Positions 4,000-35,130 of a DNA stretch of 40,927 nucleotides are shown here, piece after piece. The DNA is from a virus (Duplodnaviria > Heunggongvirae > Uroviricota > Caudoviricetes). A model generated the notes under the pieces. The model was not told the origin of the DNA, did no database searches, and was given only the letters and a program-made list of their open reading frames with translations. Where the stretch lies: IMG/VR virus record IMGVR_UViG_2541047877_000008; one strand, written 5' to 3'. Numbering within the stretch: the first letter of the stretch is position 1; every line of letters starts with the position of its first letter. Both the position numbers and the translations under genes were made by a program.

Positions 4000-4296
4000 T
4001 CAAATAGAGAAATAAACACAAAAACAAAAAACAACAGGAACAGCAAAATCCAACAGACTTCCCACATCCCACACGCGTGGATCAAAACCTCCCCACCACG
4101 GCATGTTGATACGTTTCCCTTTCCCAAACTTTTCTATCCAGCGATATTCTGCCTGGGTGTGTTCACGCGCAATGAAGAACGTACAACCGGCTATCGCACC
4201 GTAAGCCCAGTTTCCGGTAAAAATACCAACCAGTACCTGAGCCACAAAAGCGCAAAGCGAGTGAAGAAATGGAGTGACATCAATGCTCTTAATCAT
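4000..4296 (-). CDS. Small two-TM membrane protein translationally coupled to the tailspike gene (function unknown)
   Basis: ORF track 98 aa; start overlaps tailspike stop (ATGA-type overlap at 4293-4296); two hydrophobic segments; followed by an AT-rich 190-bp spacer before the holin gene. Confidence 0.4.
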   Translation of the reverse strand: MIKSIDVTPFLHSLCAFVAQVLVGIFTGNWAYGAIAGCTFFIAREHTQAEYRWIEKFGKGKRINMPWWGGFDPRVWDVGSLLDFAVPVVFCFCVYFSI

Positions 4297-6482
4297 GAAA
4301 CTTCCCCATTGGTTGAAAATATGGCTCCTCCAACGCCAAGTGTATTTCGTGTTGTGCTCAACCTCAGAGGGCTGGAGTCAGAATTAGAATATCCTGTAGC
4401 AGAAATAAAAGATCCTCCACTAATAGTCAACTGCGGAACATCGGCTATATCTGAATAAGTTCTGTCAGCAACAGTATTATTTATAGCCACATATGATCCA
4501 AAAAAACTTCTTATTGTTTGGTTTTTAACTTTACTTCCTTCAATGGTTATCCTACTACCACAGTCGGCAATAAATCCTGAATCTGCATCCAGCGTTGCAT
4601 TCATAAAAGAAGCTTCAGATCTCTCTACATCAATCCATCTAATATCTTTTGTGGGATTTGCACCAAATACATGACAAATATTAGAGTTAAACCTTACACC
4701 ATCTTGGAGGTGCATTAATTTTTTTATATCTGTACCCCATAGCCTTGGAAAATTAACAGATGCTCCTGCATGGCAATCAAATCCCAGCTCAGCCCCTGAG
4801 ATATCTACAGCCTTTCCTGAAATAACAGCACCAGTGTCTGCATTAACGGCTGTTCCACAATTGCGCATATCATTACCAGCAACATCAACGCAACCCGCAC
4901 CATCAATACGCACACCAAGTGCACATCCATAAAAACCTTTTTCAATATTTGGTTCAAGGACTTTACCACTTGTTTCTGCATCACTTTCTTCAACGTCATG
5001 TCGTCTTGCATCAACATATGCTGTATGAATGCAGGTTAATCCACGATATGAGCAATGTATAGTTTTATGGTCGCGTATATTAACATTTGAACCATCTCTT
5101 ACATTCCATCCTATATAACAATAGCTTGCACTTGACCCCTGAAAATCTGCTTTAACATTATAAATACAATTAACTGACGCAACCGTACTCTCTGTGCACC
5201 GTTCAAACTTGCTTACAGGCATTGATGCCTTGACATTATTTACCAGTTGCAGGGAAGAGTATCTGCTATAAGAAAAATCACATACGTAATACCCTTCTGG
5301 CATATATGCAGCAACACTTTCCTCATCAGGAGCACATCCGGTATGATATGCACTAATTTTTGCACCAAAACTACCATGAATTCCAACGTAGAACTTTCGA
5401 GCACCTGAATACGGATAGAAATTAAGTTCAGCTTTTTGAGTTACAATAAATGCACAAACATCGCTATCATCTCTATTTTCTTCGATCTGAATAGCAAATA
5501 CAGGACTTTTTGCTGCATCGCAAATGTAAAATAAATACTTGTATTCGTAATACGTTCTAACGATTTTAGTAAACAAACGAGTGTCAGAGAAAACCACTGA
5601 GTCTTCTGATGTTATTTTAATCCAAGACAAATCAACACCTGAACTGAATTCAATTTGATAGTTGATAATATGCCCGGTCTTAATTCTTATTTCGCAGAAA
5701 GCATTACCACCATCCCACATAGGTCTCATTGACTGGGCTGCAATGATTGCATCTTTGAGTGTAGGGTAATCACCCCATTCGCCAACAGTAATAACAAAAG
5801 TATAATATGAGTTAAAAACAGCGGCATTTTTGCCTTTGGATATCAACTCCTTAATCATAAAAATATTATCTTCGTAATCACAAGGAGAAATTATATCCCT
5901 CATTTTGCTTTGAAATGTTCGTTGTCTTGCCCCGCTTCCTGACGGTATAAACCAACCAAAACCACCAACAACCCCGGCGATTGCAGCATCGACATAATTA
6001 CGCATTGAGCGATTATTTACAGCGTCCTGCTCAAATGATGGATCTGCAAGGTTAGAAATTTTGTTTTGCTTTGCATCGTAATATTTTGCAAGCAAAGATG
6101 GTTTCATCAATGCACGTCTGAACCACCCAAAACATCGCTGGATCAGCATCGTCAGGTAGTCAAATGCATCTTCATGAACTTCGGGGAAAAATTTTCCCTG
6201 ATTGCGAAGATCAGTCTCCTGCACCACATCAAGCACACGCTCTATCGTAATTCGCCAGCCAGCAGCAAGCGGCGACGGGAGAACCACTTCACCGCCACTA
6301 TAAGTGCCCGCTCCAGTTACCTTATAACCGGTATCCAGAACCAATTCTGTTACGTTCCCGTTCAGGTCAGACACCTGAACAACCAGGTCGGTTTTTTTGA
6401 AAATACGGAAGGTATACGGAAATGATGTCGTAACGCCGTTACCGGTGTATTCGTTGTGGTCAACTTCGGTTGAGACCGTCAT
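4293..6482 (-). CDS. Tailspike / receptor-binding protein with T7 gp17-like N-terminal attachment domain
   Basis: ORF track 729 aa; N-terminal about 170 aa (NEYTGNGVTTSFPYTFRIFKKTDLVVQV...) resembles the particle-binding domain of T7-type tail fibers; remainder is Ser/Asn/Gly-rich and encoded by markedly AT-rich DNA (about 4300-5950). Confidence 0.75.
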   Translation of the reverse strand: MTVSTEVDHNEYTGNGVTTSFPYTFRIFKKTDLVVQVSDLNGNVTELVLDTGYKVTGAGTYSGGEVVLPSPLAAGWRITIERVLDVVQETDLRNQGKFFPEVHEDAFDYLTMLIQRCFGWFRRALMKPSLLAKYYDAKQNKISNLADPSFEQDAVNNRSMRNYVDAAIAGVVGGFGWFIPSGSGARQRTFQSKMRDIISPCDYEDNIFMIKELISKGKNAAVFNSYYTFVITVGEWGDYPTLKDAIIAAQSMRPMWDGGNAFCEIRIKTGHIINYQIEFSSGVDLSWIKITSEDSVVFSDTRLFTKIVRTYYEYKYLFYICDAAKSPVFAIQIEENRDDSDVCAFIVTQKAELNFYPYSGARKFYVGIHGSFGAKISAYHTGCAPDEESVAAYMPEGYYVCDFSYSRYSSLQLVNNVKASMPVSKFERCTESTVASVNCIYNVKADFQGSSASYCYIGWNVRDGSNVNIRDHKTIHCSYRGLTCIHTAYVDARRHDVEESDAETSGKVLEPNIEKGFYGCALGVRIDGAGCVDVAGNDMRNCGTAVNADTGAVISGKAVDISGAELGFDCHAGASVNFPRLWGTDIKKLMHLQDGVRFNSNICHVFGANPTKDIRWIDVERSEASFMNATLDADSGFIADCGSRITIEGSKVKNQTIRSFFGSYVAINNTVADRTYSDIADVPQLTISGGSFISATGYSNSDSSPLRLSTTRNTLGVGGAIFSTNGEVS

Positions 6483-7977: not shown

Positions 7978-8021
7978 TTGCAGACTGGGGGTGAATAGCG
8001 TACTATTACCTTAAAGGTAAA
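7978..8021 (+). promoter_or_regulatory. Promoter (TTGCAG-17-TACTAT) overlapped by operator-like palindrome ATTACC-TTAAA-GGTAAA
   Basis: -35 7978-7983, -10 8001-8006, palindrome 8005-8021; about 25 bp upstream of the strong RBS GAGGAGGAG of the 8047 gene. Confidence 0.5.
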
Positions 8022-8046
8022 CCATGTGTTTACATGAGGAGGAGAT

Positions 8047-8256
8047 ATGGGATTTTGGTTCGCTCGTACAAAAACGAGGGATAATGCACCCAGCCCTCAG
8101 GCAAAAAATGCAGAAGTTCCGGCGTCAGCGCAGGTTAACAAGCGTGGTGGTGTGTATATCTCATCACAGCAAATTTCTGAGCTTCCTGAGGTTAAGGAGA
8201 TGCGTCGTCTCGCTGCTGCAATCGTTAAACAGGATCTTGCCACTGTAAGGAAATAG
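8047..8256 (+). CDS. Small hypothetical protein, first gene of the accessory cassette
   Basis: ORF track 69 aa; strong SD GAGGAGGAG 8036-8044; stop overlaps the GTG start of the next gene (TAGTG). Confidence 0.5.
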   Translation: MGFWFARTKTRDNAPSPQAKNAEVPASAQVNKRGGVYISSQQISELPEVKEMRRLAAAIVKQDLATVRK

Positions 8257-9119
8257 TGTTGTTAGCTCTTCTAATTATCCCCATTCTGGTTAGTGGTTAT
8301 ATTATGATAACCGCTAACCAGTATCATTATTTCCGTTTATACCGACATGAAGGCCAGCTTCTTTATATGAAAGTTGCTGCATTAGGTACATATTGCCTTG
8401 TTGCTTCGGTAATAATTGCCGCATTTATAAAATATAAATATCCTGATTTTCACCTAGTTCACGATATGGTGGAAACTTTTAATGTAACGTCAAAACCAGA
8501 AACAGATAGAATTTACATGTGGCTACTTCTTCTGTCAGTCACATCAATTTGCTTCTCTTTGTGTTATGTATCTTTTGTTTGGCTAAAAGATCTTCTTTTA
8601 GGTTGTTTTTATAAACGTGATATTTATGACAAAATATCAGAGGCAATGAAAGCTAGGGTATTGCGAAAAACGTACTCCCAGGGTTCTTTAGATTTGCTAT
8701 TGCTTGATGCAATCGAATCAGATCCTAAGAAACCAATGTTAATTACTTTATCATCAAATAAAGTATACGTTGGAATAATAAATGGTTCTGGTGAGCCAAC
8801 GGAAAATCAAGGGCCACACCAACACATATCTTTTGTTCCTTTAATGTCAGGGTACAGAAACAAAGAAAATTTATCTGTTACATTTACAAACGCTTACCCA
8901 GGTGAAATCCAAATTAAGCGCAGTGCTGCGATAAAAGGGATAAGCAAAAAGAAAGTTCAAGGTCTAGAAATTATGGTATCTATAGACGAAATAAGTCATA
9001 TATCATGGTTTGACTTTGAAGTATATAAGGCAACAAATAACAAAGTAGAAACAAAGGGTCATGTTGTTAATGTGACCAAAAATGGTCGCAACATATACTA
9101 CAGAAGTGGCAGAAAATAA
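8256..9119 (+). CDS. Membrane protein (about 3 N-terminal TM helices plus about 175-aa soluble domain), AT-rich cargo gene; candidate superinfection-exclusion/defence component
   Basis: ORF track 287 aa, GTG start coupled to upstream stop; hydrophobic segments in first about 110 aa; DNA strongly AT-rich relative to neighbours; no motif recognised. Confidence 0.5.
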   Translation: MLLALLIIPILVSGYIMITANQYHYFRLYRHEGQLLYMKVAALGTYCLVASVIIAAFIKYKYPDFHLVHDMVETFNVTSKPETDRIYMWLLLLSVTSICFSLCYVSFVWLKDLLLGCFYKRDIYDKISEAMKARVLRKTYSQGSLDLLLLDAIESDPKKPMLITLSSNKVYVGIINGSGEPTENQGPHQHISFVPLMSGYRNKENLSVTFTNAYPGEIQIKRSAAIKGISKKKVQGLEIMVSIDEISHISWFDFEVYKATNNKVETKGHVVNVTKNGRNIYYRSGRK

Positions 9120-9135
9120 ATTTTACGCAGTTTAG

Positions 9136-9648
9136 GTGGCTTATATGGATAATACTATCTTAGGCGCATTGATAGGTGCAGTTATTGCTATAGTTTCCAC
9201 TTATATAAATGCAGGACAAGGATACAAAAACAGCATAAGATTAGAGCGACAAAAAATATTAAGGGATAAACGCGAGCAATTATTTATAAATTGTATACTT
9301 ACTAAAAAAGTCATAGATTCAAGCACAATTACCATTCTCAATTTCGTAAAAAATGCCAGATACCACTCTGATAGTAAATTTGACGTATCAAGAGCGAATC
9401 CGTTGCAAACGATGGAAATGCTAATAAACATATACCTTCCTGAGTATAAAAAAGACTTACAAGAACTCAATAATGCGTATCAAGAATTTCACAAATACTA
9501 CTCTCAATATACATGTGCACATACCTTCAAAAATATGCCTGATAATGAGAAGTCGAGGTTTATTGAGGAGGCTGATTTTTATGCAAAAAAGATATATGGC
9601 AAACTTAATGATATTAAGGACAAGATATCATTAAACTCAATAGTATAA
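9136..9648 (+). CDS. Membrane-anchored protein (single N-terminal TM, K/E-rich soluble domain), AT-rich cargo gene
   Basis: ORF track 170 aa; N-terminal ILGALIGAVIAIVSTYI hydrophobic helix; AT-rich; 16 nt downstream of previous gene. Confidence 0.5.
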   Translation: MAYMDNTILGALIGAVIAIVSTYINAGQGYKNSIRLERQKILRDKREQLFINCILTKKVIDSSTITILNFVKNARYHSDSKFDVSRANPLQTMEMLINIYLPEYKKDLQELNNAYQEFHKYYSQYTCAHTFKNMPDNEKSRFIEEADFYAKKIYGKLNDIKDKISLNSIV

Positions 9649-9723
9649 CAGCGATACTGCTGCTGACGGCTCCCGCTGCGGTGGGCGTTCTGCGGATTCC
9701 CGCCCAGGCGGCGGTGGCATTCG

Positions 9724-9750
9724 TTAAAAACAAGGCCGCGAAAGCGGCCT
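9724..9750 (-). terminator. Intrinsic terminator after the lipoprotein gene (end of ejection-gene transcription unit)
   Basis: AGGCCGC-GAAA-GCGGCCT hairpin 9733-9750; on the minus strand it is followed by a T-run (complement of AAAAA 9726-9730); 16 nt past the stop of the 9766-10179 gene. Confidence 0.55.
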
Positions 9751-9765
9751 GTGACATGTCACGAC

Positions 9766-10179
9766 TTATAAAGATGACTGATATTTTACAACTCTGTTCA
9801 TGGCATCTTTTTTCACCGAGCTGATATCAGTTCTTATTTTGGCTTCGTCATTACTGCTTATCATGCTATTAATTTTTTGCACTGACATGCCGTTTCTTTC
9901 AGCCATTGCACATACAGCAGCATCGTATGAAGAACTCGCTGCGATGGATATCACCTTGTTACACTCAAACACAGCACCTTCAGCAATATCAGATGCCGAT
10001 GAGGCTGGCTTGGTATAAGTCTTGACGTAGTGATCAATACAACTATCCTTCGCCGTCTTGGCAAGAGAAAAATCCATTTTAACTTTGTCGCAATATGCCT
10101 TATCAACACCGTCATAAACATCATAGGATGTCGAGCAAGCGGATATCAAAAATACCGATAACAGCAATAATTCCTTCAT
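9766..10179 (-). CDS. Lipoprotein (signal peptide plus lipobox ISAC), AT-rich; possible exclusion/cor-like cargo protein
   Basis: ORF track 137 aa; MKELLLLSVFLISAC lipoprotein signal; SD AAGGAA upstream; AT-rich composition. Confidence 0.55.
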   Translation of the reverse strand: MKELLLLSVFLISACSTSYDVYDGVDKAYCDKVKMDFSLAKTAKDSCIDHYVKTYTKPASSASDIAEGAVFECNKVISIAASSSYDAAVCAMAERNGMSVQKINSMISSNDEAKIRTDISSVKKDAMNRVVKYQSSL

Positions 10180-26594: not shown

Positions 26595-26671
26595 GTGGCA
26601 TTAGCTCAGTTGGACAGAGCAACCGCCTTCTAAGCGGTTGGTCGCAGGTTCGAATCCTGCATGCCGCGCCA
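26595..26671 (+). tRNA. tRNA-Arg (anticodon TCT, reads AGA)
   Basis: Manually folded cloverleaf: acceptor GTGGCAT/ATGCCGC, D-stem GCTC/GAGC, anticodon stem ACCGC/GCGGT with loop CTTCTAA, T-arm GCAGG-TTCGAAT-CCTGC, discriminator G, encoded CCA; 77 nt. Confidence 0.85.
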
Positions 26672-32312: not shown

Positions 32313-32373
32313 CTTTACCCTCGCTTATCCACATAACTTATTGATTACATTGATAACTAAAAAGATCGTCGAT

Positions 32374-32835: not shown

Positions 32836-33636
32836 TTACTTGATAAATCCTGCCACCTTTCCCCGCCTGTATTCCTCCATCAGCCACTGCGCCGGTGTTA
32901 TTCCCCCAAGGGTGGCGGCGTTAGGCATGCACCCGAAACTTCGCCCTGGTGGATGGTAAACGTCTCTCCCTGTGTCCGGAGGCGTACTCATGGGTTCTGG
33001 CTTTGCCTGTATGCTGATCACCGGATCGGGTATCTGCTGTCCGGAAGCCACCTTTTTCGCCCAATCATCGAGCAGCCTGCGCGCGTGTTTCTCAACCTCA
33101 ATCTCGCTAAGCTGGCGCTGATACATTGCACGGCGGGTATCACATACGACCCAGTACATAACCGGATGTCGCCACGGGAATCTTTCGGGACCACCAGGAT
33201 ATAAACTTTTTTCCTTGCTGTACCGGTGAAACTCCGCCATCACATCGTCAATGGTGACGCCAAGAACCATCTTGCTGTCTTTGCACCACTTGATAAATTG
33301 CCCTGGCGACGGCCAGAACGGAGATTCACTGGCGCGGGCGTGGCGCATACCAGCAGAAACCTGTTCACGGGTTCGGATCCCACCTTCGGCAAACGCAGCA
33401 ATCCACTGCTGTTTTGCAGCAACTTCCTGCTCTGGCGTCTTCAGGTTGGTTACCACTGCCGCCGGAAACAGCTGTTTCAGCTGTTTGAAAAGGGCATCAA
33501 CAAGCCTCTCTGCTGACATGTTCACCACATTGTCATTGTTGACGTACTGATGCTCATAACCTGACATGCGAGAAAGGGCTTCTCCGTCACGGTTTTGTAT
33601 CGCGGTAAAAACGTTGTTCACAAGAAATCCTCCCAT
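32836..33636 (-). CDS. Replication protein P-like (helicase loader)
   Basis: ORF track 266 aa; similarity by eye to lambda P (QQWIAAF..GIRT.EQV.AGMR.AR....FWPSPGQF..WC; YP.GPERFPW). Confidence 0.65.
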   Translation of the reverse strand: MGGFLVNNVFTAIQNRDGEALSRMSGYEHQYVNNDNVVNMSAERLVDALFKQLKQLFPAAVVTNLKTPEQEVAAKQQWIAAFAEGGIRTREQVSAGMRHARASESPFWPSPGQFIKWCKDSKMVLGVTIDDVMAEFHRYSKEKSLYPGGPERFPWRHPVMYWVVCDTRRAMYQRQLSEIEVEKHARRLLDDWAKKVASGQQIPDPVISIQAKPEPMSTPPDTGRDVYHPPGRSFGCMPNAATLGGITPAQWLMEEYRRGKVAGFIK

Positions 33637-34433
33637 GCTTCAGGGCTGTTCCAGTGCGGAACGTTGTTATCAGGTAATGTTGATTGCTTCTGTCTGCTAA
33701 TCTGCAGCCGCCTTGCCAGCTTCTGCTCCCACTGTGCCTGATGGTATGCCTTACCCTCAGCCATCCAGTAAATTCTGAACTCTGCAAGTTCCTGTGCCGT
33801 TGGCAGACTGTCCAGGTAGATCCCCTGCAATGAGCTTTTCCGAAGAAAGTCATCTGATGGCTGCCATTGTTCATGCATGACAAATTTGCCTAATTGCCCT
33901 GGCCCACCAGGAGGAACAAAGTTATTCATCACGGCGTTGTTTGCGTTGGGGTCATGATGCACAGAATCCCCGTTTTTTGTCCTGCTCTCCCTCTCTTGGT
34001 TAAATGACTGGTTATATGACTGGTTCTGGATCCCGTTTTTGGGATCATTCAACATCCCGTTTTTGGGATCATTCAACATCCCGTTTTTGGGTATATTCCC
34101 GTTTTCGGTAACATTACCGTTTTCGGGTTCATTGCCCCCCTCCCGGTTGCCTTTAATGTTCCCGTTTTTGGTTATATTAAGAGAGAAAACCCGCACTCTT
34201 TTTGTCGCTCCCTTTCTCTCTCCGGTATCTGAAATAAGCCCCATTTTCATGAGCGATATAAGTCCGGCCTGCACGGTTTTTTTATTCAGGCAAGTGTCTT
34301 TAACGAGGCGTTCTATGCTGGGGTAGCAGAGGTTATATTCATCGGCTCTGTCAGCCATCGAGAGCAGTATGAGCTTTAATGATGAGCTACCTGGATCTGT
34401 CTCCCAGGCCCAATCTGTTGCATGTCTGCTCAT
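33618..34433 (-). CDS. Replication initiator (O-like): N-terminal HTH domain, repeat-encoded middle, DnaT-like C-terminus
   Basis: ORF track 271 aa; N-terminal LKLILLSMADRADEYNLCYPSIERL HTH pattern; internal tandem peptide repeats (PKNGMLND) coded by the iteron array. Confidence 0.6.
   Translation of the reverse strand: MSRHATDWAWETDPGSSSLKLILLSMADRADEYNLCYPSIERLVKDTCLNKKTVQAGLISLMKMGLISDTGERKGATKRVRVFSLNITKNGNIKGNREGGNEPENGNVTENGNIPKNGMLNDPKNGMLNDPKNGIQNQSYNQSFNQERESRTKNGDSVHHDPNANNAVMNNFVPPGGPGQLGKFVMHEQWQPSDDFLRKSSLQGIYLDSLPTAQELAEFRIYWMAEGKAYHQAQWEQKLARRLQISRQKQSTLPDNNVPHWNSPEAWEDFL
33967..34171. repeat. Iteron array (putative phage origin of replication) inside the O-like gene
   Basis: Copies of TCCCGTTTT(T/C)GG at 33967, 34031, 34055, 34079, 34097, 34115 (TACCGTTTTCGG) and 34160; spacings 24, 24, 18, 18 bp in the core. 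Confidence 0.7.
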
Positions 34434-34448
34434 GATTAATCTCCGCTA

Positions 34449-34649
34449 TCAGCTTGAGTGTTGTGGGGAGGAATTAATCATGATCTGCTTAATCTCTGCC
34501 CTGATGCGACGGTTTGATTCCATGGTGCACTCAACACAGTGTCCGTTGTAAACCCAGCGTTCACTGTCATGTCCGTGCTTACATGGTTTTCCGGTGTAGT
34601 AGCGTTTAAGTCCGCGCTTTGCGGCATCAATACGTGTAATGATTTCCAT
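34449..34649 (-). CDS. Small Cys/His-rich protein in the cII position
   Basis: Within track ORF 34449-34712; ATG 34647-34649 with SD AGGG; motif CKHGH...CVEC. Confidence 0.4.
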   Translation of the reverse strand: MEIITRIDAAKRGLKRYYTGKPCKHGHDSERWVYNGHCVECTMESNRRIRAEIKQIMINSSPQHSS

Positions 34650-34754: not shown

Positions 34755-34778
34755 GAAAAGACCGCCGGATGGCGGTCT
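34755..34778 (-). terminator. Intrinsic terminator between the Cro-like and cII-position genes (tR1-like)
   Basis: 8-bp stem AGACCGCC / GGCGGTCT with loop GGAT (34759-34778); on the minus strand followed by TTTTCATAT. Confidence 0.5.
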
Positions 34779-34799: not shown

Positions 34800-35030
34800 T
34801 CATGAGTAGAAGAAGTATGCCAGTTCTGCTTTTGAGCGCAGCCATTGTCTTGATTTACAGGCTTTAAAAAGCCCATCCATCAATACCTTACCTGGCATTT
34901 TGCGCTTACCTGTTAAGTGAGTCTGGATATAGTGACTCGTCGTTCCGGCTTCCTGTGCGAAGGCTTCACGCTCATCCGGAGTAAGTGCAAGCCAGTGCTT
35001 TTTGAAATCGAAATGTCCGTTATCGCTCAT
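34800..35030 (-). CDS. Cro-like small HTH regulator
   Basis: ORF track 76 aa; divergent from the repressor gene across the operator cluster. Confidence 0.5.
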   Translation of the reverse strand: MSDNGHFDFKKHWLALTPDEREAFAQEAGTTSHYIQTHLTGKRKMPGKVLMDGLFKACKSRQWLRSKAELAYFFYS

Positions 35031-35065
35031 AGCTATTGCCTGATATTTATTTCAGATAATAAATA

Positions 35066-35130
35066 TTCACCTATAAGGTAACAAAAATCAAGGATAGTTA
35101 CCCATGAGGTGCATTTACCTGTTGGGTAAT
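35066..35130. promoter_or_regulatory. OR-like operator cluster (three 17-bp sites: 35066-35082, 35097-35113, 35114-35130)
   Basis: TTCACC-TATAA-GGTAAC, GTTACC-CATGA-GGTGCA, TTTACC-TGTTG-GGTAAT; centre spacings 31 and 17 bp; between the cro-like start (35030) and the repressor start (35185). Confidence 0.6.

Follow-up and report, generated by a model that had tools for sequence, protein, structure and literature searches.

The IMG/VR virus record IMGVR_UViG_2541047877_000008 is a stretch of 40,927 nucleotides (hereafter the window) from a virus of the Caudoviricetes. It is a phiV10-like Uetakevirus, that is, an epsilon15-like temperate podovirus of E. coli, and its region of interest is 97–99% identical to phages phiv142-3, EC.W1-9, PAS61, and phiV10. 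Its replication initiator gene (33618–34433, minus strand) contains an array of six short repeats at 34031–34171, adjoined by a second conserved element at 33995–34029. The array is probably the iteron part of a lambda-type replication origin located inside the initiator gene of this phiV10-like phage, a reading to which we assign a probability of roughly 0.78. We infer origin activity from sequence comparisons, first with homologous loci in many bacterial species and then with lambda.

Repeat array and initiator gene

Matches to the pattern TCCCGTTTTYGG with at most one mismatch were counted in the window, and 100 dinucleotide shuffles were used as the null model. Seven matches were found against 0.29 predicted by the shuffles, none of which (0/100) reached seven. 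Six of them are clustered, with starts at 34031, 34055, 34079, 34097, 34115, and 34160, and span 141 bp; five of these copies are exact, and the one at 34115 (TACCG...) has a single mismatch. The remaining match, at 37568, is isolated, unrelated, and on the opposite strand. The start-to-start spacings of the six copies are 24, 24, 18, 18, and 45 bp, and the first five copies are in tandem, which confirms the spacing described in an earlier, sequence-only reading of the window. Tandem Repeats Finder reports a 24-bp unit in 2.6 copies with 100% identity (score 124), an 18-bp unit in 3.1 copies (score 68), and a separate 12-bp unit in 2.4 copies at 33997–34025 (score 51). These are the top three tandem-repeat scores of the whole window, and no other repeat array was found in it with this program.

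The sequence-only reading had counted seven copies inside the replication initiator gene. Six of these stand, and all six lie within the minus-strand open reading frame (ORF) 33618–34433. The seventh, TCCCCGTTTTTTGT (33967–33980, minus strand), is degenerate, with two mismatches to the 12-mer, and agrees with the pattern only as CCCGTTTTTTGT against CCCGTTTTTGGT. It is not conserved: 5 of its 14 positions are variable in close relatives, where it is read as TKNGD, TKSGD, TKTGD, TKTRG, or TKAGD. It is probably not a functional site.

Numbered from the promoter-proximal side, and all on the minus strand, the copies are as follows. Iteron 1 (34160–34171) is an isolated copy that reads CCAAAAACGGGA on the coding strand and is invariant in 53 haplotypes of close relatives. 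Iterons 2 (34114–34131) and 3 (34096–34113) are 18-bp units with the cores TACCGTTTTCGG, which holds the single mismatch, and TCCCGTTTTCGG; iteron 2 is one of two units with variable sites among relatives. Iteron 4 (34078–34095, core TCCCGTTTTTGG) has a near-perfect dyad, ATCCC-N6-GGGTA, and the 24-bp units of iterons 5 (34054–34077) and 6 (34030–34053) each have the perfect dyad ATCCC-GTTTTT-GGGAT. The dyad is a feature of the first three units by coordinate (34031, 34055, and 34079), being imperfect in the third. Among relatives, the unit of iteron 5 is present in one to five copies, and iteron 6 is the last before the second element. In the minus-strand ORF, the six copies are read as TKNGN, PENGN, TENGN, PKNGMLND, PKNGMLND, and PKNGI, and codon use in the cores is uniform, with AAC in 7 of 7 copies and GGG in 6 of 7.

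The initiator is a protein of 271 amino acids (aa) that consists of a winged helix, a disordered linker, and a DnaT-like C-terminal domain. Pfam places HTH_36 at aa 18–67 and DnaT at aa 184–252, and the best PHROG match is phrog_1032, "replication initiation protein" (1.9e-108). In an AlphaFold (AF2) model built on 120 family representatives, the winged helix covers aa 1–88 with a predicted local distance difference test score (pLDDT) of 94–98 and the topology H-H-H-H-E-E, aa 94–163 are disordered (pLDDT below 50), and a three-helix C-domain covers aa 190–255. The iterons encode aa 88–135. Since the model places them, together with the 12-bp repeats, between the winged helix and the C-domain, both kinds of repeat encode the disordered linker.

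The region that encodes the N-terminal winged helix (aa 1–87; 34173–34433, minus strand) was defined by pLDDT and by Foldseek matches to MarR/BlaI/Rep-type winged helices, which include the plasmid Rep-DNA complex 5kbj. This domain is presumed to be the one that binds the iterons. Against PDB sequences, its profile found only marginal winged-helix regulators. The region that encodes the DnaT-like C-terminal domain for binding of single-stranded DNA (ssDNA; aa 181–265; 33639–33893, minus strand) was defined by phmmer and Foldseek. It matches the PDB sequences 6aep, 9zbt, and 4ou6 in phmmer with E about 1e-20, and 4ou6 in Foldseek with a template modelling (TM) score of 0.80 normalised to the target. 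A homologue search with the full protein returned only E. coli proteins with at least 87% identity, and a query with the 101-aa N-domain returned short fragments only. The database name "primosomal protein" for the phage initiator covers only its last third. An 11-nt perfect inverted repeat, TCATGATTAAT / ATTAATCATGA (34430–34440 and 34473–34483), spans the initiator start codon and the end of the small ORF upstream; it may form a translational-coupling or regulatory hairpin.

Homologous loci and the second conserved element

Scans of viral contigs found only near-identical relatives of the window, and of lambda O. About 80 near-identical IMG/VR loci contain between 3 and 9 cores each, most often 6; in the 5.3-kb loci of the 80 closest relatives, every one of the 475 cores belongs to the array, with none elsewhere or on the other strand. 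One 24-bp unit is missing from phage BP9, and the second element of phiV10 contains an additional 12-bp unit. Four CCAAAAACGGGA cores are invariant in 53 haplotypes of standard length. Through gain or loss of 24-, 18-, and 12-bp units, the length of the initiator in the IMG/VR relatives (L010–L089) varies from 263 to 295 aa. One relative (L083) has a 231-aa product, which may reflect a frameshift or a truncation after the array.

To cover other species, one genome per species was scanned, which gave 80 loci, and 76 homologous loci from other species were analysed. The 80 loci came from Vibrio, Acinetobacter, Pseudoalteromonas, Marinomonas, Providencia, Edwardsiella, Desulfovibrionaceae, Sphingomonadales, and others. 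An unbiased search looked for the most repeated 14-mer (up to three mismatches) in nt 230–640 of the gene, and 287 equally long windows taken from these loci served as controls. A repeated 14-mer was present in at least four copies in 68 of the 76 loci and in at least five copies in 62 (range 3–11), and none of the 287 control windows reached five copies. The array lies at about nt 260–330 of the gene, just past the winged-helix domain and at the same spot as in the window. Comparison with related phages, which the sequence-only reading had named as a check, thus finds the same type of array at the same place in the 76 homologous loci of other species.

Sixty of the 76 loci have one or more spacings that are not divisible by 3 (commonly 17, 22, 25, and 46 bp), and the motif is read in two to three frames within the gene. 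Because the spacing is out of frame in these loci, the repeats are regarded as a DNA signal and not as a peptide repeat. The peptides of the homologues vary (PKNG, PKIG, PKFG, PIYG, PENG), while CC(C)-A/T-rich-(G)GG stays. N-domain homologues in Edwardsiella phage GF-2, Vibrio phage Her, Acinetobacter phage AP22, and the PPompW prophage have arrays at the same place, which are made of CCCAAAATTGGG, CCGAAAACGG, CCCAAATTTGGG, or CCCAAAAACGG. The best-preserved units are palindromic, and their outer bases swap in matched pairs (ATCCC..GGGAT, GTACC..GGTAC, GTCCC..GGGAC, and GTGCC..GGCAC). Judged by this comparison, the matched-pair palindromes and the frame-free arrays behave like a binding site for a dimeric protein.

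The array is co-inherited with the N-terminal DNA-binding domain, and not with the C-domain, across many species. The N-domain family comprises 619 clusters at 50% identity (E<=1e-10), and the domain is always N-terminal in the protein. HTH_36 is present in all of 120 representatives, the DnaT domain in 18, and the lambda O C-terminal domain in 2; the C-termini of the rest are unassigned. The array is present in three contexts, namely with a DnaT-like domain and P (the window), with the C-terminal half of lambda O and P (GF-2), and with another C-terminus and a DnaB-like helicase as neighbour (AP22). The epsilon15-like Salmonella phage SPN1S has the DnaT-like C-domain in common with the window and a different N-domain, and its initiator (L008, 1030–1845) contains 0 cores, so its origin must be organised differently. 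No P-like gene is present downstream of the SPN1S initiator. Such cores were likewise absent from the 80 lambda-O loci examined.

The GF-2 initiator (L005, 1501–2343) consists of the N-domain, the iterons, and the 3x[G/T]AAYC element of the HTH_36 family, followed by lambda O (62% identity over 144 aa, E 2e-67). The lambda part starts at CGTC(C/A)GAGAATTCTG.CGAATCCTC, and the junction lies immediately to the right of the position of the lambda AT-rich region. Because the junction falls there, the block replaces the N-domain, iterons, and AT-rich region of lambda as one unit. A phiV10-like replication segment was also seen in two unusual records. It lies at the end of the 138-kb Vequintavirus record of Escherichia phage BP9 (PP488543.1, 131937–138295) and in the 115-kb unannotated record of PH444 (PP350014.1), and both records may be chimeric assemblies or contain co-assembled prophage DNA.

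The second element (33995–34029, minus strand; coding strand CCAGAACCAGTCAT ATAACCAGTCAT TTAACCAAG) may serve for DNA unwinding or helicase entry. In the window it is made up of three [G/T]AACC units 12 bp apart. In homologues, ...GG(G)ACAC(A/G)GAAYC... comes directly past the last iteron, followed by two more [G/T]AAYC (or GATCT) units 11–13 bp apart, and in Acinetobacter loci the A-run TAAAAATAAAAA often trails the element. In 61 of the 76 loci the three-unit pattern lies no more than 90 nt from the last iteron, against a chance expectation of 0.0006 per 90 nt, and elsewhere there are 5 matches in 733,650 nt. On both strands of the window, 33995–34029 is the sole match. The G of GAAYC is at codon position 3 in 51 unique loci, at position 1 in 13, and at position 2 in 2. 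The element stands in differing frames in at least 15 loci, and the units of one gene often differ in frame, so that this element, too, is a DNA-level feature. It is also the locally least stable duplex (63% A+T; free energy over 30 bp -35.3, 93rd percentile).

A broader proposal can be made only tentatively, and we consider it rather less likely than not. According to this proposal, the winged helix, the iterons, and three [G/T]AAYC units spaced by roughly one helical turn, in many cases with an A-run after them, would form an undescribed conserved origin architecture in hundreds of prophage lineages from Enterobacterales to Desulfovibrionaceae. [G/T]AAYC would then be a sequence-specific opening or helicase-entry signal that moves with the N-domain and would be recognised by the initiator or the loaded complex. 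If the repeats are such an opening signal, they would be comparable to DnaA-trios or to the 13-mers of plasmid unwinding elements.

Comparison with lambda and alternative explanations

An origin inside the initiator gene is textbook knowledge for lambda. In lambda, four annotated iterons (ATCCCTCAAAACGAGGGA and variants) lie in O just past the Phage_rep_O domain and are followed by an AT-rich region. The window is collinear with lambda O and its origin: a DNA-binding domain is followed by iterons in the linker, an unwinding-type element, and a C-terminal domain. In both phages the iterons are direct repeats with an inner dyad and an A-tract (ATCCCTCAAAACGAGGGA in lambda and ATCCCAAAAACGGGAT in the window). 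They take the form TCCC..A-tract..GGGA, are spaced by about two helical turns, and have the A-tract (A5 in the window) on the coding strand. In both, the iterons are located in linker-coding DNA right past the winged-helix domain, the unwinding-type element is promoter-distal, the gene of a homologous P-type DnaB loader comes next, and the genes lie downstream of a cro-side early promoter and a terminator. The number of iterons also varies between relatives, as in the lambda group, where the origin lies in the middle of gene O with four iterons in lambda and six in Stx phages (PMC7466680). This collinear layout, the P homologue, and the GF-2 hybrid support the view, put forward in the sequence-only reading, that the arrangement mirrors lambda.

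There are also clear differences. The N-domain is Pfam HTH_36 in the window and Phage_rep_O in lambda O, and the C-domain is DnaT-like in the window and Phg_2220_C in lambda O. The half-sites of the window are 3 bp closer together, and its six sites are spaced at 18, 24, and 45 bp. Lambda has a 40-bp tract of roughly 80% A+T, whereas the window has three 12-bp [G/T]AACC repeats with 63% A+T. A remote link between the proteins is given by phrog_678 and phrog_345, both of which are matched by the N-domains of the window initiator and of lambda O, and a published HHpred analysis placed PF13730 in the N-terminus of lambda O (PMC5509034). Calling the gene "O-like" was therefore right in that it encodes a replication initiator remotely related to O, and wrong in that this HTH_36 plus DnaT protein stands outside the Pfam lambda O family; by these profile comparisons, the initiator is a remote relative of lambda O only.

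Initiation can be pictured as follows. Dimers of the N-domain would bind the six iterons and form an O-some-like complex, which, helped by transcription from the upstream early promoter, would destabilise the adjoining element with the 12-bp repeats (33995–34029). The DnaT-like C-domain would hold the exposed ssDNA, dock the P-like loader carrying host DnaB, or do both, and bidirectional replication would then begin. The origin can sit in coding DNA, and its copy number can drift (3–9 cores among relatives), because the linker tolerates almost any peptide.

Several observations count against the origin reading. Every spacing in the window is divisible by 3, and the window sequence by itself therefore does not distinguish a repeat at the DNA level from one at the peptide level. 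Among the 53 haplotypes, variable sites make up 4 of 72 positions in all six cores and 80 of 744 in the rest of the gene, a deficit that is not significant (p=0.22). The excess of dyads over all units is modest, since arms of 4 nt or longer occur in 47% of units and in 33% of controls. No strongly AT-rich stretch like that of lambda was found near the array; the best candidate, 33990–34030, which covers the second element, has 63% A+T and its free energy of -35.3 compares with -30.7 for the lambda AT-rich tract. A GC-skew minimum is present near 34–36 kb and proves nothing, because it coincides with a switch in gene orientation. With respect to lambda O, no Pfam cross-matches with the window protein were found even at E<=10, which leaves the latter outside the lambda O family; BLASTP of the N-domain against lambda O found nothing, and hhalign gave a weak result (E 0.009, 4% probability).

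The explanation that competes best with an origin is that the repeats are binding sites of the initiator which serve mainly for control, by autoregulation, an operon roadblock, titration, or handcuffing, and that replication truly starts elsewhere. The comparative evidence for protein binding fits this explanation equally well, plasmid iterons serve both control and initiation, and no pronounced AT-rich region stands beside the window array. We nevertheless consider it improbable, at around one chance in ten, since the 3x[G/T]AAYC element adjoins the last iteron in 61 of the 76 loci, the GF-2 block holds the exact position of the lambda iterons and AT-rich region, and the window contains no other repeat array.

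Less can be said for a pure coding repeat, in which a PKNGMLND/xENGNx low-complexity linker was expanded by slippage and the DNA has no function of its own. The in-frame spacing in the window and the non-significant conservation test within the lineage agree with it, as do the polymorphic copy number, the predicted disorder of the region, and the 100% identity of the 24-bp units, which suggests recent duplication. It is very unlikely in view of the 60 loci in which the motif is out of frame and read in two to three frames, and of peptides that differ while CCC..GGG stays and the cores keep the same codons.

Sites for something else, be it a host factor, a recombination hot spot for module swaps, or RNA hairpins or terminators formed by the dyads, would fit the mosaic junctions of GF-2 and SPN1S just beyond the block and the two terminator-like hairpins that adjacent half-sites form on the plus strand, but they are equally improbable because the number of terminator-like structures is at the level of shuffles (4 vs 3.9) with stems of only three G-C pairs, Rfam finds nothing, no DnaA box lies within 1.7 kb, and the motif tracks the N-domain in hosts from Vibrio to Desulfovibrionaceae, its sequence changing with the lineage of the initiator domain, which makes a host-factor site unlikely.

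The iterons of plasmid origins (RK2 oriV/TrfA, R6K, pPS10, F) offer a further comparison to the lambda-type origin proposed here. In these origins a winged-helix initiator goes together with tandem iterons and with an unwinding element that contains repeated 13-mers, and the iterons lie outside the rep gene, usually beside DnaA boxes. The window likewise has a winged-helix initiator, tandem iterons, and adjoining short repeats about one helical turn apart. It differs in that its iterons lie inside the gene, its initiator does not resemble Rep_3-type initiators in sequence, and 1.7 kb separate the array from the nearest DnaA box. That box, TTATCCACA (32325–32333, plus strand), is located between the DUF1064 gene and the gene after it and is the sole perfect DnaA box in the window; relaxed DnaA boxes number 2, below the chance level of 3.9, and none was found within 1.7 kb of the array. 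E. coli DnaT is about 55% identical to the C-terminal 85 aa of the initiator in its ssDNA-binding domain and has the same three-helix fold, but it is without a winged-helix origin-binding domain and acts in PriA-dependent restart, not at the origin.

A matching domain arrangement is that of DopC/DopE, a chromosomal pair of HTH_36+DnaT_C and P-like proteins in Cellvibrionales and Oceanospirillales that is derived from lambdoid O/P (Brezellec et al. 2017, PMC5509034). As in the window, a protein with HTH_36 and a DnaT C-terminus is followed by a lambda-P-like protein. The genes for DopC and DopE reside in the chromosome, and iteron-like repeats were not found in dopC by the authors (PMC5509034); the pair in the window belongs to a phage, the window being 97–99% identical to phiV10-like genomes, and has six iterons in the initiator gene.

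Neighbouring genes and significance

The gene that follows the initiator (32836–33621, minus strand, with the start as annotated in phiV10) encodes a lambda-P-type helicase loader, and its start overlaps the initiator stop. The assignment is based on Pfam Phage_lambda_P (1.5e-56), phrog_109 "P-like helicase loader", and 31% identity to lambda P (E 5e-36). A pR-like promoter candidate (35056–35084, minus strand), predicted from a consensus match alone (9/12), is located between a divergent repressor gene (35185–35769, plus strand) and a cro-like gene (34800–35030, minus strand). This promoter would drive the cro-like gene, the small ORF that lies upstream of the initiator on the same strand, the initiator, and the loader, and transcription from it would cross the origin. 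A terminator-like hairpin (34759–34778, minus strand) lies between the cro-like gene and the replication genes at the position of lambda tR1, and the phiV10 annotation has a rho-independent terminator at the equivalent place. The succession of promoter, cro-like gene, hairpin, small ORF, initiator, and loader, facing a divergent repressor, is the early-right layout of lambda.

Two further features lie elsewhere in the window. A tRNA-Arg gene (anticodon TCT; 26595–26671, plus strand) is located amid genes on the terminase and portal side; since O157 typing phage 9 and the prophages of some 1,000 complete E. coli genomes contain the same segment, it is phage-borne and not host flank. Two islands of low GC content at about 4000–6000 and 8000–10000 (0.37–0.39, compared with about 0.50 elsewhere) suggest acquired accessory genes.

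A literature search for iterons with HTH_36 or O-like initiators, in which the phiV10 and epsilon15 genome papers were not covered, found no description of this origin or motif, and a literal search of papers for the core sequence returned unrelated primers only. The origin-in-initiator arrangement itself is expected; the new features are the type of initiator, in which HTH_36 and a DnaT domain are fused, the iteron signature shared across the family, and the [G/T]AAYC element. Since the linker that it encodes is disordered, the same motif is read in all three frames in different relatives, so that the DNA carries two messages.

Phages of the phiV10 type are used as typing and reporter phages for E. 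coli O157 and are common as E. coli prophages. The analysis places their probable origin at 33995–34171, which would be useful for engineering such phages, building phagemids, and reading induction coverage. The signature of an iteron array and three [G/T]AAYC units directly past an HTH_36 domain predicts origins across the 619-cluster family, whose members are at present annotated just as "helix-turn-helix", "primosomal protein", or "DnaT". The phage pair also appears to be a mobile version, still equipped with its origin, of the domesticated helicase-loading pair DopC/DopE.

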